From assembly GCF_003334315.1 (NCBI RefSeq), contig NZ_QOWR01000059.1: a stretch of DNA of 28,938 bases; one strand, 5' to 3'. The stretch is from Escherichia coli (GTDB lineage: Bacteria > Pseudomonadota > Gammaproteobacteria > Enterobacterales > Enterobacteriaceae). The translations under genes were made by a program, and so were the position numbers. Each line of letters starts with the position of its first letter. Within the stretch, counting starts at the first letter, position 1. This document shows positions 2,490-28,938 of the stretch, one piece after another. The notes beneath the pieces were generated by a model. The model was given only the letters and a program-made list of their open reading frames with translations, was not told the DNA's origin and ran no database searches.

Positions 2490-3875
2490 TTACTTACGAC
2501 GCCAGGTGGTCCCTTGCGGGCCATCTTCCAGCACGATCCCCATCTCGTTAAGACGATCACGCGCCGCATCCGCCGCCGCCCAGTCTTTCGCTTTACGGGC
2601 ATCCAGACGCTGTTGAATTAACGCTTCAATCTCAGCCACTTCGCTGTCGTCTGCCTGCGCGCCGCTTTGCAGGAACGCTTCCGGTTCTTGCTCCAGCAGG
2701 CCCAATACAGCGGAAAGTTTACGCAGGTGAGATGCCATTGCATTCGCCGCTGCCATATCTTCTGCTTTCAGACGGTTTACTTCACGCGCCATATCAAACA
2801 GTACGGAATAGGCTTCCGGGGTGTTGAAATCGTCGTCCATCGCTTCAATAAAGCGCGCTTCAAACGCTTCGCCACCGGCAGGCGCAACGGTTTTATCTGT
2901 GCCGCGCAGCGCAGTGTAGAGACGCTCCAGCGCCGCACGCGCCTGCTTCAGGTTCTCTTCGCTGTAGTTCAACTGGCTGCGATAGTGGCCCGACATCAGG
3001 AAGTAACGCACGGTTTCCGCGTCGTAGTATTTCAGCACATCGCGCACGGTAAAGAAGTTACCCAGCGATTTGGACATCTTCTCGCGGTCAACCATCACCA
3101 TCCCCGAGTGCATCCAGTAGTTCACATACTGACCATCATGGGCACAGGTGGACTGCGCGATTTCGTTTTCGTGGTGCGGGAACATCAGGTCTGAACCGCC
3201 GCCGTGGATATCAAAGTGGTTACCCAGCTGCTTGCAGTTCATTGCCGAACATTCAATGTGCCAGCCAGGACGACCCGCGCCCCACGGAGACGGCCAGCTC
3301 GGTTCGCCCTCTTTCGACATCTTCCACAGAACGAAGTCCATTGGGTTGCGTTTGTCGTCGACCACGTCAACGCGCGCGCCTGCCTGCAGCTGGTCGAGAT
3401 CCTGACGCGACAGCACGCCATAAGTTGGATCGGTCGGGACGTCGAACATCACGTCGCCGTTGTCCGCCACATAAGCGTGACCTTTGGCGATCAGTTGTTC
3501 AGTGAGTTCAATAATTTCTGCGATATGGTGCGTCGCGCGCGGCTCCATATCCGGGCGCAGAATGTTCAACGCATCAAAATCTTTGTGCATTTCGGCGATC
3601 ATGCGATCCACCAGCGCCACAAAGCTTTCGCCATTTTCATTGGCGCGTTTGATGATTTTGTCGTCGATATCGGTAATGTTGCGCACATACTTCAGCTTAT
3701 AGCCGAGGAAACGCAGATAGCGCGCAACCACGTCAAAAGCAACAAAGGTACGCCCGTGACCGATATGACAGAGATCGTAAACGGTGATTCCACACACGTA
3801 CATGCCGACTTCCCCGGCGTGAATAGGCTTAAATTCCTCTTTTTGGCGTGTCAGAGTATTGAAGATTTTTAGCAT
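2490..3875 (-). CDS. cysS: Cysteinyl-tRNA synthetase
   Basis: 461-aa [46 protein letters not shown]... with class-I aaRS HIGH motif and KMSKS (EKMSKSLGN). Confidence 0.97.
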
Positions 3876-7153: not shown

Positions 7154-8047
7154 CTACAGCGAAATACAGGTCCCCGCTTCGCCCGCCAGCGTCTCTTCAA
7201 TTCGCGATAACGCCCCAATCCACGCGGGTTTACCACCGCTTCTGACATAACCACTCACCGCCGTTACCTTCGGCCCCATCGAACCATCGGCTTTGGCAAA
7301 TGGCGCTAACTCATCCGGTGTGGCATGGCGAATGGCGCGTTGCTGCGGCGTTCCCCAGTTTTCATATACCGCATCAGCATCAGTGAGGATCACCAGCCCA
7401 TCGGCGTTAATCTGCTCAGCGAGCAACGCAGCAGCGAGATCTTTATCAATCACCGCTTCACTCCCTGCCCCATCTTCCGTCACAGGCACACCGCCGCCGC
7501 CACTGCAAATCACCACATGCCCCTCTTTGAGCAACAACTCGATGGCTTCGCTGTCGAGAATTTTACGCGGTTGCGGAGACGCCACCACCCGGCGCAAATA
7601 TTTACCATCACGTTTCATCTGCCAGCCGTAAGCCGCTTCCAGTGCCTCTTGTTCTTCTGGCTGATAAACCGGACCAATAAATTTCTCTGGCTGCAAAAAC
7701 GCCGGATCATCAGGCGAAACCTCAATGCGCGTCAGCACCGTCGTCACGGGCGGCATCTGCGGCTGTGCGCTCAAACTCTGCGCCAGCATATAGCCAATCA
7801 TCCCCTGACTTTCTGCCACCAGCACATCCAGCGGATACGGTTCTACCTCTTTCCACGCCAGATTCTGCAATGCCAGCAGCCCCACCTGCGGCCCGTTGCC
7901 GTGAACAATCGCCAGCCGATAAGAACGGGCCAGGCGCGCCAGCGCGGGTACAGCACTGGCGATATTGCGATATTGATTTTCTGCCGTCAGCGCCTCACCG
8001 CGCTGGAGTAAGGCGTTTCCCCCAAGAGCTACAACCAGTGTTTTCAT
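7154..8047 (-). CDS. ybcF: Carbamate kinase (ArcC-like; reported as AllK)
   Basis: 297-aa [43 protein letters not shown]... amino-acid kinase family; start overlaps ylbF stop (ATGA). Confidence 0.9.
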
Positions 8048-8859
8048 GGTTTTCCTTGTAATAATTGTTGACCAAGCCAGAACCCCAGCAGTGTATCTGC
8101 CCCTGACGTATGCCCCAGCGCCAGCAGCGAATCAATCGCAACAGCGGTACGTTTCGGGCAACTCAGAGCATGAACAAAGTGCAGGAGTGGCGAGGCGAAA
8201 TATCCTTGCGCGGCATAACGTAAATAACTGACGCTCACCGCTGTGGTAACGAGTTGCAGATTGTCGGAACAGGCAAAAAACTGGCGACCGGAGCGCGCAT
8301 CTAAAGCGCCATAATACCAGGCCGCCAGCAGCATTCCGCTCAGCGTGTCATCATGACTCGGCGTTAATCCGGGGCCTTTACCCAGCCAGTGCCGCCAGTC
8401 GGTCTTAACGCCATTGAGCGCGGCCTGAAAACAGTGACGAAACTGGCGTAACTCAGCAGGCAGCGGATCGCTTGCCGCCAACGCCAGTGGCCCGAAAAGC
8501 CCGGTTTCCTCCGCGCATTGCATCCATGCAGCTGCAAGTGGTTGAGGATGCGCAGGCGGCGTAATACGCAGCAAACAATAACGCTGTGGCTGTTTAACCG
8601 TGAAACGCCCGAGGCGAATCCCTTGAGCCACAACCTGTGGTCGTTCATTGCCGCATAATCCACCGCATAACGCATCGAATTGCGCACGGCGAAGCATCCA
8701 TCCTCCGGGGCCGAAACCACTACCCTGACGATGCAGCGTTAACAGTTCGCCGCTTTCCGTCATCAGGTTAATCGCCCGTCGCCACACTCCCGCTAACCGC
8801 CAGGACTGGCGATAATTCGGTGCACTACGGCTGGCAAGCAGAGGATGGATGATCGTCAT
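8044..8859 (-). CDS. ylbF: YlbF (DUF2877 family; reported subunit of oxamate carbamoyltransferase)
   Basis: Start placed at ATG 8857..8859 ([21 protein letters not shown]...) with GAGGA RBS upstream, giving 271 aa; the longer ORF-track start at 8952 lies inside ylbE. Confidence 0.8.
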
Positions 8860-8869
8860 TGCGCGTTCC

Positions 8870-10129
8870 TCAACCAATCCCCATGCTTTCAGCCAGTGCT
8901 TCCAGCGCCTGTTCAAAACACGCCAGCGGTGCCCGCACAGTGCCTGCGCCAATCTGCCCGATCCCCGCCTCTTTATGGGCGATACCGGTATTGATGAGTG
9001 GCGTAATGCCGGTTTCTACCACGCGACGAATGTCCAGTCCCAGGCACGCGCCCTGAAAATCCCAGCCTGGGATCTGCAACTGCATATTGCGCTCAAGGTA
9101 AATTTCCGCCATCTCTTCAGATACCGCTCTGGCCGCTTCCATGCCACCCGCACCGACAAAGCGCGTTACGCCAGGCGCTGCGATCATTGCCGCACCTCCG
9201 ATACCAAAGGTTTCGGTAATCGCGCTATCGCCCATATCCGGGTTCGCCTGCTCCTGCGAGAAGCCGGTGAAAAACAGACCTTGCGGAGTGTTTACAGGCG
9301 CAGTAAACCAGCGTTCGCCCAGCCCGCTTACCCGAATCCCGAACATATTGCCGTTGCGGGTCATTGCCGTGACGATGCTGCCTGCGCGGATCATCGCGCC
9401 AGCATCCATCGCCGCCTTGCAGTAAGCCATCGCGAGGTTGAGGAAGAACTGATCGGTCACGCTGAGGAAATCCATCACTTCGGCGATGTGCTGTTTATCA
9501 TGATCGAGGCGAGCAATTTGTGGGACCAGCGCACGCATTAACAGTGCAGAGGAAGCAATATTGCGTTGATGGAACTCATCGCCCATCGTAATGCCCTGCG
9601 CCATCATCGCCGTGAGATCGATACCGCGCTCCATGCGCCCCAGCGCCGCGCTTAATACTGGCATTAACACATCGCGCATCCAGCGATGGCGAGTCAGGAC
9701 ATCTTCGCCGTAAGCGCCAAAACGCATCACTTTGCCGATACCTTCGTTGAGGTTGCAGTACGCCCGGTTGCCGTCGGTCACGTTCTCAACCACCAGCATC
9801 GGCATACTGGCAGAAGTAATACCGCCCATTGGACCGACGGCATTCACATGGTGACAAGGAATGAAGTTCACTTCCCCCTGCTCCAGTATTGCCAGCGCCT
9901 GCGCTTCATCTTTCGCCCAGCCTTCGAACAGACATGCGCCCACGCACGCCCCTTTCATGGGTCCGGTCATCTCCTGCCAGCGCATTGGCGGCCCGGCGTG
10001 AAGCAGTGTTTTGCCCTCGTTTAGTTCGCTGATAAGTGAAGAAGCCGGTTGCACATCCAGCCAGTGTGGACGAGCGCGACGAATTTGTTCGATAACCGCA
10101 GCATTGGCTTGCGCCACTGATGTAAACAT
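8870..10129 (-). CDS. ylbE: YlbE (DUF1116 family; reported subunit of oxamate carbamoyltransferase), intact
   Basis: Uninterrupted 419-aa [29 protein letters not shown]...; AAGGGG RBS immediately upstream, overlapping the fdrA stop. Confidence 0.85.
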
Positions 10130-10138
10130 GGGAACCCC

Positions 10139-11806
10139 TTATTGCAAACGTTCTAATAAACGAGCCAGTTTTTTATTGCCGCCGGCGACTGGCGACCATT
10201 GGTAATGCACAACCGGTTTGCTGGCGCTTTGTAGCTCCAGCGCAAAGCTGCGTAATCCGATGTTAATCACGGCGACGTTTTCCAGTAATGACGGTGTGTG
10301 TTGCTGAGTGGCAGGCGAAAGCGGACGAATCAGTGCCGCCGCCAGCAAGGTGGCTTCCGGCAGCGAACTCACTACCGCGATCCCTGCATCTTCCAGCGTG
10401 GCGATTTGCTGCGAGCGGCATTGCGGGTCACGTTCAGTGCCTGTCACCGTGGCAATGGCATACAGTGGTTGATTGTCTGAACGCGCAGCACAGGCTTTTT
10501 GCCAGGCGCTTACCAGCGAGGCGGCAGGATCGGCGGTCGCACCGAAGCCAATCACGACATCAAGCAGCAGCACACGCACTTGCGGTTTAGCGCCGAGATC
10601 GGTAATTAACTGGTTGCGTAAGGTTGGGTCGATCATCGGATGGGGACGCCCGACGGTGTAGAAATCATCGCCGAGGTCAATAATCTGGTGGCCATCGGCG
10701 TCCAGCATCATGCCATGTTGATGGGTATCGTCGGCTTCCACGCCAAGGTGCCCGGCAAGTAATCCCGCCGCTTCGGCGGCCAGCGTACCGCCGGTATACA
10801 AACCGCAAATAAATCCGCTGCTGACAGGTGCTATTGCGTTACGTCGCGCCGTGACGCGTGAAAGCAGGCAAGCCAGGCGTGCGGCCTCATCCAGCGAGGA
10901 GGCAAACCAGACATTCTCGTCGCGGGCCACCGCCGGGGTATAACCTAAAAACAGCGCCACCGTCGGTTTGCCGGTTGCTTTCATGGCATTAACAATTTTC
11001 AGACGCACAGCTTCGGCAGGCGGTTTTGAAACAAATGCCAGCACTTCGCTTTTCTCGTCTGCACTGAGCATTTCCAGCGCCGTCAGCGCACTGATGCCGC
11101 CCACTTCACGGCTGAGGTCGCGCCCGCCAAGGCCAATCGCGTGAGTAATTCCCTCCCCTGCCAGCGCAATCTGCGAACACAGTTCCTGAATCCCGGTACC
11201 GGAAGCGCCAATGACGCCAATATTGCCTTCCGGCATCACGTTAGCAAAAGCCAGCGGCGTGCCGGCAATCATCGACGTACCGCAGTCCGGCCCCATCACC
11301 AGCAAGCCTTTTTCCCGCGCGCGGCTTTTAAGTTGGATTTCATCTTCCAGCGTGACGTTATCGGAGAACATCATCACGTTGAGGTTGCGATCCAGCGCCT
11401 GGTTCGCCAGCTCCGCCGCATACTCGCCAGCCACTGAAATCAGCGCCAGACTGGCGTCGGGTAATTTCTGACAGGCACTGTCCCAGCGACGCACCTGCGT
11501 CAAGGCCTGGCTGCTGCCTGACCCCTGCGCCAGTTGTTTTAGCGCCTCTTCAAGCTGCTGCATAATCGCCTACGCGATCCCCGCATCCGCCGCTTCGCTA
11601 CGAATTGTCACGCAAATATCGTTCGACGTGGCGTTATTAAAATCGTCATGCCAGAAACCTGTGGTATCTAATAACGCTTTATTGGCGGGCGTACCCATCA
11701 TTACGGAAACATCATCAACATTTTCTGATTCGCTGAGTTTTCGTGAAATAATCATTAAACTGACCGAATCCTGAAAACACCCTTTTTTAATAAAGGCGTG
11801 GATCAT
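10139..11806 (-). pseudogene. fdrA: fdrA (succinyl-CoA-synthetase-like protein; reported AllF) interrupted by an in-frame TAG at codon 79
   Basis: ORFs 11570..11806 (78 aa, ...AADAGIA) and 10139..11563 (474 aa, MQQLEE...) are in the same frame. Minus strand reads GCG-TAG-GCG-ATT-ATG, so 78 + stop + 2 + 474 = 555 codons, the length I recall for K-12 FdrA. Confidence 0.75.
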
Positions 11807-12043
11807 AACAACTCCTTAAAAATTGCACCCATGGCAATTGCACGAGCAGTGTTAATGTGGCGATTACGGTATCGATGACAACGGGTAAATAAGGTGATGA
11901 ATATTACACAGGGATTATTAACAAAAGAATTCAAATAACCGCCATGCTATTACGTGTTATTTTTTAATAAGCGTGGTTGTTTTAAAAACCAGGTTAAAAG
12001 AGAGCGGATTATCAAATAAATTCTAACTATATTTTTTTGCCTG

Positions 12044-12063
12044 TCTGGATCACATAATCCAGA
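12044..12063. promoter_or_regulatory. Palindrome TCTGGAT-N6-ATCCAGA in the fdrA/allD divergent promoter region (candidate regulator site)
   Basis: Perfect 7-bp inverted repeat about 60 nt upstream of allD ATG in a 316-bp AT-rich intergenic region. Confidence 0.3.
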
Positions 12064-12122
12064 TATTTTCCCTGTATGTTAATTGCAGTCATGCTTCACA
12101 CCGTCGTTAAAAAGGAAGACAG

Positions 12123-19398: not shown

Positions 19399-20853
19399 TT
19401 AACCTATGGTTTTTTGCTCTCCTGTTTTTTCTGCTGTTGTACGTTTCTTTAATAAGGCGTAGGCCGCAAAGGCGACGATGACGCCGACAAACCATGAAAC
19501 ACGCGATAACGGTTCCATAAAGTGAATAAACTTACCGCCAAGAGATAAAATAACGGCCACCAGAGTTACTGAAAACGCAGTGAGGTTAAAACCGTTATCG
19601 TAATATTTATAATCGCCAGGTGCGGTATACAGTTCATCAAGATTAATTTGTCCGCGCATCACCACAAAATAATGCGCCATCATGACACCAATTACCGGAC
19701 CAAGCATTCCGCCGATAATATCGAGGAAAAGATAAATGCTGTCCTGATTTTCCATTAATTTTCACGGGCAGATCAGCAAGCTGATAATACTGGCAATCAG
19801 TACGCCGTTTTTATAGGTCAGTTTTGTCGGTGCAATGGCGGCAATCTGATAACCGGCTGGAATAATATTACCGGTCGCGTTAGTGGAGATAGTTGTCATC
19901 AGAATAACCAGTACCGCAAAGAACGAGGCGAACAGGCTGTCCCAACGCTGAACAATATCCAGCACGTTCCAGGTATCAGCGCCGTAGTGAATACTGGCTC
20001 CGGCAATAATACATACCCCGGCGACCGCAAACAGAATATAGGCCACAACTAAACCCAGCGTTTGCCCCAGCGCCTGCTCACGAAACGAGTGGGCGTTTTG
20101 CGTAAAGTCGGATGCGCTCACCGCCGGTGCCGCCCAGACCGCAACTACCGCGTTAATCACCACCAGGAACAGGAAGCCACCGTTTTCTGCTTTCTGAATA
20201 CCGCTCGGAATGTAGTCAAAGATTGGACCGATCCCGATCAGTGAAATCGCCCAAATCGCCATACCGCCGAAAACGATATAGATGCACGGGTTAAGAATGG
20301 CAGTGAATTTATTTAAAACTTTGCCACCGCCAAAACCTATACCAACGTTGACCAGCCAGAAGATTAAGAAAGTAATTAAGCCCGGTAGAGAAAGGCCTAA
20401 CAGAGTGAAATCACCACCGAGAGTTAAAAATCCCGGCCAGATTTTGCCAATCAGAATCAAGCAGGCCAGTGACCCCGCGTAACATTGCAAACCAAACCAC
20501 ATGATGGCGGCAATTCCGCCCCTTAATAATCCGGGAAACAGTGCACCACGTACACCGTAAGAAGCACGCAGGATCATGGCAAAAGGCACACCGTATTTAC
20601 TGCCCGCAGCACCGTTTAATACCATTACCGCGGCAATGAAAAAGGCGCTGAGGATAATTGCCAGCATAATACTAAAGGTAGACAAGCCGAGAATAAAAAA
20701 GCCGCCGACCATCACATAATTGGGAACGTTATGAACCGAACCCATCCATAAGGTAAAATAGTTAAATGTTTTCCAGGTCCGCTGGCTTTGCGTTTTCGGC
20801 AATAGATCTTCGCTATAGCCGCGTTGCTGGAATAGTTTTCTCTGATGTTCCAT
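19399..20853 (-). pseudogene. ybbW: Allantoin permease (NCS1 family) interrupted by an in-frame TGA at codon 364
   Basis: ORFs 19762..20853 (363 aa ...LLICP) and 19399..19755 (118 aa MENQDS...) share a frame. Minus strand reads ...TGA-AAA-TTA-ATG-GAA, so 363 + stop + 2 + 118 = 484 codons, the length I recall for K-12 YbbW/AllP. Confidence 0.75.
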
Positions 20854-27244: not shown

Positions 27245-28354
<1,110 letters not shown>

Positions 28355-28861: not shown

Positions 28862-28938
28862 TGATCTTACCCAGCAATAGTGGACACGCGGCTAAGTGAG
28901 TAAACTCTCAGTCAGAGGTGACTCACATGACAAAAACA
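28862..28938 (+). mobile_element. insE: IS3 left end (IRL and start of orfA), continues beyond window end
   Basis: TGATCTTACCCAGCAATAGTGGACACGCGGCTAAGTGAGTAAACTCTCAGTCAGAGGTGACTCACATGACAAAAACA matches my memory of the IS3 left terminus and the OrfA start (ATG 28927, MTKT...). Confidence 0.85.

Follow-up and report, generated by a model that had tools for sequence, protein, structure and literature searches.

Does an uninterrupted ylbE gene set an Escherichia coli strain apart from the K-12 reference MG1655? The question is raised by a contig of 28,938 nucleotides (NZ_QOWR01000059.1, assembly GCF_003334315.1), which we call the window, meaning this whole stretch at its full length. A preliminary description of it saw ylbE as one open frame, named the MG1655 copy a split pseudogene and took the difference as a marker of strain background. 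The gene itself had been delimited correctly: the ORF listing gives a single uninterrupted minus-strand frame of 419 codons with an ATG start at 8870-10129, comprising 1260 nt with its TGA stop (8870-8872), and a frame of 419 codons would stay open by chance with a probability of about 2e-9, from (61/64)^419. The ribosome-binding site, which had been called good, is indeed AAGGGG at 5 nt from the start codon. By direct reading, the minus strand before the ylbE start runs CAA-TAA-GGGGTTCCC-ATG, and fdrA ends with its TAA stop (10139-10141) 9 nt ahead of the ylbE ATG, an arrangement typical for translationally coupled operon genes. The features of the gene are as follows.

8870-10129, minus strand: ylbE (allG) coding sequence, predicted AllG subunit of oxamic transcarbamylase, from the ORF, the Pfam AllG match, the MG1655 comparison and homology to PDB entry 3CLQ.
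10135-10140, minus strand: ylbE Shine-Dalgarno sequence AAGGGG, 5 nt before the ATG (10127-10129) and sharing two bases with the end of the fdrA TAA, from sequence reading.
9874-9878, minus strand: run of five G residues at ylbE nt 252-256, the historical K-12 frameshift site, with four G residues in the W3110 record and the old MG1655 reference.
9525, minus strand: ylbE nt 605 C>T (GCC>GTC, A202V), the sole difference in the gene from the nearest complete genomes.

The YlbE product matches the Pfam family PF06545 AllG (formerly DUF1116) over the whole model (1-215 of 215, E = 1.9e-97); no NCBIfam model matched it. A full-length profile match is thus joined by orthology to the K-12 protein and by operon context, all three of which identify the gene as a member of the AllG family. 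Two other frames at the locus, a plus-strand ORF at 8849-9541 that overlaps ylbE and a TTG-extended version of ylbF at 8044-8952, were set aside as mechanical shadow ORFs, since the annotated records that we compared have no gene at the former and none annotated in the latter form. We therefore consider it very probable that 8870-10129 is an ordinary, ancestral and intact ylbE (allG) allele, the second gene of allFGHK (fdrA-ylbE-ylbF-ybcF), a judgement that we make jointly with three points argued below, namely that the gene has the AllG function, that it is not a strain marker and that its product is now an orphan subunit. The literature already covers AllG, its function (described in 2024) and how the K-12 gene came to be annotated as a 'pseudogene'.

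The current MG1655 sequence bears directly on the marker. In NC_000913.3, ylbE (b4572, YP_009029994.1) is an intact 1260-bp CDS annotated as 'DUF1116 domain-containing protein YlbE', to which the window gene aligns without a gap at 99.2% nucleotide identity (10 substitutions, eight of them synonymous); 417 of the 419 residues of the protein are identical, the two differences being A202V and S355G. At the two sites that define the K-12 frameshift allele, which has GGGG at nt 252-256 and A at nt 114, the window carries GGGGG and G114, identical to version 3 of MG1655. In the W3110 RefSeq record (NC_007779.1), ylbE is annotated as 'frameshifted' with a length of 1259 bp (NC_007779.1 locus extract 2582-3840); this copy differs from that of MG1655 version 3 at exactly two places, A114 and GGGG for GGGGG, and in the alignment the W3110-type frame stops after codon 85 (...EQGK*). 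Both of these bases were corrected for MG1655 in U00096.3 and are still present in the W3110 record. The same two positions recur in papers that used the older reference, in which MG1655 stocks or other K-12 strains are described as departing from that reference by +G at ylbE base 253 (old coordinate 547,831) and by a silent substitution at base 114 (PMC5460176, PMC4404585, PMC3045373). One of them gives, for the 'ylbE pseudogene', the changes '547,831 +G' and '547,694 A>G', which 'make ORF' (PMC5460176), another says of NCM3722 that the frameshift difference 'restored an intact ancestral gene' (PMC3045373), and the third describes the extra ylbE base as known genetic variation of common MG1655 stock cultures, citing Freddolino et al. 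2012 (PMC4404585). U00096.2 was replaced by U00096.3 in 2013, according to EcoCyc (PMC5210515).

It is thus very unlikely that an uninterrupted ylbE alone separates this strain from an MG1655 whose copy is a frameshifted pseudogene. The frameshifted 1259-bp gene of the W3110 record and the naming of ylbE as a pseudogene in work on the old MG1655 reference both speak for such a separation, but the revised reference has the intact gene with the same five G residues, and the extra base was already recognised in MG1655 stocks. A split ylbE is true of the old reference and is still true of the W3110 record, but not of NC_000913.3. The 'pseudogene' of K-12 was a difference of one base, four G residues versus five, in the earlier reference. 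E. coli has ylbE intact by default, and the intact gene is of no use as a non-K-12 marker. Indeed, the interval was matched in 5421 of 5426 complete E. coli genomes, with at least 80% of the gene covered in 5418 of the 5426, and ylbE is an ordinary annotated CDS in REL606, LCP22S3_I2 and 30EVA2. Among nine ylbE alleles, 13 codons vary synonymously only and three carry an amino-acid change. This pattern argues that ylbE is under purifying selection across the species, the open reading frame being the presumed ancestral, selected state.

That the strain is not MG1655, as had been proposed, follows from substitutions and insertion sequence (IS) events rather than from the intact ylbE. Identity with MG1655 across the ylbE interval, which the preliminary description had named as the refuting outcome, does not hold, given the 10 substitutions in the gene. 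Positions 205-28486 of the window are the reverse complement of NC_000913.3 530000-558281 at 99.19% identity, with 229 substitutions, including those 10, and no gap. Over these 28,282 collinear bp, which run from the remaining 5' end of sfmA and folD to selU, the gene order is shared with MG1655, just as had been stated. Two IS elements bound the window.

1-204, no strand assigned: IS1 end abutting sfmA codon 23; only the first 70 nt of sfmA are left (205-274).
28862-28938, plus strand: left end of an IS3 (77 nt), 20 nt past the ylbG stop and a 100% match to the end of MG1655 IS3C.

The IS3 beside ylbG is a genuine difference from MG1655; it is absent there and in REL606 and present in LCP22S3_I2 and 30EVA2. 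The IS1 had been placed in sfmA, and its junction is likewise absent from MG1655 and REL606, but an insertion into sfmA is not the whole event: relative to LCP22S3_I2, 1,911 bp beside the IS1 are missing, a segment that takes in the 5' portion of sfmD, the whole of sfmC and the 3' portion of sfmA. By this alignment the sfm lesion is an IS1-flanked adjacent deletion and not a simple insertion into sfmA. With both ends falling in repeats, the window has the look of a contig assembled from short reads.

The search for a nearest match, also suggested beforehand, led to pig commensal LCP22S3_I2 (NZ_CM149864.1) as the closest complete genome over 28.7 kb, with 8 substitutions, and to an even closer draft, GCA_958326205.1, which differs at 5 positions in 21 kb. 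REL606 stands at a distance of about 1%, with indels, and its ylbE differs from that of the window by 7 nt. By these sequence distances, the nearest relatives are commensal, phylogroup-A-like E. coli. Two other origins were considered and rejected. A synthetic recoding, suggested by 229 mismatches without indels relative to MG1655, is ruled out by the IS elements and by natural isolates 5 to 8 differences away; a Shigella origin, suggested by an IS-bounded contig with nonsense mutations and no exact match in complete E. coli genomes, is unsupported, the nearest sequence being commensal E. coli at 99.97% and the stop in fdrA, described below, being present in no more than a handful of public runs. 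Elsewhere in the window, selU/mnmH (27260-28354) has 12 nucleotide differences from MG1655, and all 7 amino-acid changes fall in residues 109-153; allS, next to it, shows no difference. The pattern resembles a small patch of recombination, which may have happened on the K-12 side.

Of the two amino-acid differences from MG1655, A202V raises the question of whether the intact frame encodes a working protein. The change is found in none of the 5,426 complete genomes, the best match having one mismatch, and it arose in a lineage that also gained stop codons in fdrA and allW, both of which would fit a gene that is functionally dead through a damaging A202V, a pseudogene in all but name. We regard this as highly improbable. 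The YlbE protein of the window, with V202, is indexed in 101 blocks of a public contig collection, and all five of the contigs shown carry an intact fdrA of 555 aa; in three of those drafts the ylbE DNA is identical to that of the window, with flanks about 1% different. Recombination or recurrent mutation could explain the V202 allele in such unrelated drafts. Moreover, the counterpart of residue 202 in the Enterococcus homologue 3CLQ is threonine, which argues that the position tolerates beta-branched residues. On these grounds, A202V is probably neutral.

What, then, would an intact YlbE do in this strain? fdrA, ylbE and ylbF have been renamed allF, allG and allH and jointly encode oxamic transcarbamylase (Kim & Kim 2024, PMC11326118), which catalyses oxalurate + Pi <-> oxamate + carbamoyl phosphate, a long-orphan step of anaerobic allantoin degradation (PMC11326118). 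Oxamate was not formed by the ΔallF and ΔallG mutants and reached 1.2 mM in ΔallH, compared with 17.7 mM in the wild type; the triple mutant was not rescued by single genes, 16% of wild-type oxamate was regained with allGH alone, and the purified AllF-AllG-AllH complex, in which AllF was used full-length, was active (PMC11326118). A carbamate kinase gene closes the operon allFGHK (PMC9843812), the transcription of which is activated by AllS and ArcA, binding at -203/-144 and -142/-83 from the allF ATG (PMC12535856). For the window, the enzymatic role of AllG is carried over from this K-12 literature and would apply by analogy. The two downstream genes of the operon are both intact.

8044-8859, minus strand: ylbF (allH), 271 aa; its ATG lies 10 nt past the ylbE stop, and a contig with 100% identical DNA carries the AllH Pfam label.
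7154-8047, minus strand: ybcF (allK), carbamate kinase, 297 aa, last gene of the operon (NCBIfam NF006926, 619 bits).

AllK, the carbamate kinase, converts carbamoyl phosphate to ATP and ammonia. The order allF-allG-allH-allK, divergent from allD-allC-allE, is as in MG1655 over 28.3 kb, and contigs identical to the window carry the Pfam labels AllF, AllG, AllH and AA_kinase. Translation of each MG1655 gene within the window did, however, reveal two genes with nonsense mutations, and a further change lies upstream of allF.

10139-11806, minus strand: fdrA (allF), with an amber stop at codon 79 (CAG>TAG, 11570-11572), from translation against MG1655.
19399-20853, minus strand: allW (allantoin transporter), interrupted at codon 364 by an opal stop (TGG>TGA, 19760-19762), from translation against MG1655.
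11807-12122, minus strand: allD-allF intergenic and promoter region, with a lineage-private SNP at 11905.

The amber stop leaves fdrA as a 78-aa HMA_AllF_N fragment plus a 474-aa ORF that begins at the ATG of codon 82 (11561-11563), which lies 6 nt after the stop and has a weak AGG 5 nt upstream; the two pieces occupy positions 1-77 and 82-555 of the NCBIfam FdrA model. The opal stop cuts the allW product from 484 to 363 aa and is private to the lineage, and a second allW change, V206I (window 20238), is common to the closest draft, GCA_958326205.1. Of the three subunits of AllFGH, AllG and AllH are thus intact and AllF is interrupted. The SNP at 11905 is a G>A change on the coding strand at -99 from the allF ATG (TGTGTGATAT > TGTGTAATAT), which makes a TAATAT hexamer; it falls within the -142/-83 fragment bound by ArcA-P (PMC12535856), and a simple promoter scan called no site at it. 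The private changes relative to the closest draft number four and are all G:C>A:T (ylbE A202V, fdrA Q79*, -99 of allF and allW W364*). We make no case for chemical mutagenesis or mutation clustering from them: there are only four events, their clustering is not significant (P = 0.29), and ylbE C605T occurs in unrelated backgrounds as well.

Assembly or sequencing error would be another account of the two stops, and a contig of short-read appearance, with one end inside IS1 and the other exactly 77 nt into IS3, might invite it. It is extremely improbable nonetheless: both stops are base substitutions and not homopolymer indels, and the fdrA stop, with its split into 78 and 474 aa, recurs at 100% identity to the window in contigs of two runs that were assembled independently, SRR10357290 (14.7 kb) and ERR271230 (8.2 kb), the former of which also spans the allW stop, with a split into 363 and 118 aa. 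The 474-aa FdrA products in five other public contigs were discarded as further instances, since codon 79 is CAG there and each contig breaks off immediately upstream of the predicted gene; one more public contig does not span codon 79. Both fdrA and allW are intact in LCP22S3_I2 and GCA_958326205.1.

Despite the amber stop, the operon might still function, either by a restart at Met82 of allF or by suppressor readthrough, with the AllF core assembling with AllG and AllH. Several observations favour this reading. The stop and the codon-82 ATG are only 6 nt apart, PDB entry 3DMY is exactly FdrA residues 82-555 and was crystallised as a stable dimer, this 474-aa core keeps the CoA_binding and Ligase_CoA domains according to Pfam labels, and allG, allH and allK are all intact. 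We nevertheless think it unlikely that the operon works, as the 78-aa HMA_AllF_N domain may not be dispensable, the active enzyme contained full-length AllF (PMC11326118), and the loss of allW and the promoter-region SNP in the same lineage look like pathway decay and not maintenance. A more elaborate version, for which we see only a slim chance, would be a natural 'domain-split' AllF, in which the 78-aa HMA-like N-domain and the 474-aa core are made separately by termination-reinitiation and form, with the intact AllG and AllH, an oxamic transcarbamylase that is active or altered; if true, it would explain the intact allG, allH and allK and reveal the purpose of the N-domain. Some AllF function could survive by reinitiation or through an amber suppressor elsewhere in the genome. 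The loss of AllF may also not be absolute, by analogy with the oxamate regained from allGH alone (PMC11326118), and other routes of uptake may make up for the truncated AllW.

The reading that we prefer is that of an intact gene in a disabled pathway. AllG is not known to act outside the three-subunit enzyme. Since allF, allG and allH are all needed for oxamate and allF is stopped, the intact AllG is probably an orphan subunit; the amber stop in allF and the opal stop in allW would most likely leave it so, in a crippled oxamate branch. The lesions are recent, as neither gene is interrupted in the closest relatives, 5 to 8 differences away, and allG has probably been kept intact only for that reason. 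Judging from the sequence, the intact ylbE of the window thus probably sits in a crippled pathway, and fdrA Q79* and allW W364* predict that the strain has lost the oxamate branch when it uses allantoin anaerobically.

Other members of this group show damage to the same cluster. In 30EVA2 and one more close relative, an IS1 stands in place of allW-glxR and cuts into allB; in GCA_022489375.1, a 1057-bp IS with a 9-bp duplication lies in fdrA near codons 13-15. The relatives with allantoin-cluster lesions are 99.95-99.97% identical to the window, and the look-up that found them favoured differing contexts, so that no frequency can be taken from them. The stops in allF and allW add to this small set of independent allantoin-cluster lesions in close relatives, a pattern that would fit weakened selection for the use of allantoin within the clade.

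For annotation and strain typing the lesson is that an intact ylbE is found in the corrected MG1655 reference as well. Useful strain markers in the window are instead its SNPs, fdrA Q79*, allW W364*, the IS3 next to ylbG and the sfm deletion flanked by IS1, and the mildly interesting points, namely the two nonsense mutations and a possible split AllF, fall outside the ylbE interval.

Set beside known systems, the ylbE locus of the window corresponds to that of MG1655, whose YlbE/AllG has the same length (419 aa), start, stop, ribosome-binding site and place between fdrA and ylbF, whereas allF and allW, both intact in MG1655, carry an amber and an opal stop here. The frameshifted ylbE of W3110 and U00096.2 occupies the same locus between the same flanking genes, but the form in the window is intact. 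Among natural isolates, LCP22S3_I2, 30EVA2 (NZ_CP138419.1) and GCA_958326205.1 differ from the window by 1 nt in ylbE and by 5 to 8 positions over 21-28.7 kb; they have an intact fdrA and lack V202, and LCP22S3_I2 and 30EVA2 share the IS3 beside ylbG, although their IS1 lies in sfmD and does not abut sfmA. The sole solved structure of the DUF1116 family that we found is PDB entry 3CLQ, an uncharacterised DUF1116 protein of 421 aa from Enterococcus, which is homologous to YlbE over its full length (residues 2-414 to 7-418, E = 5e-112); it is a distant orthologue, entered without an assigned function and solved without AllF or AllH partners.
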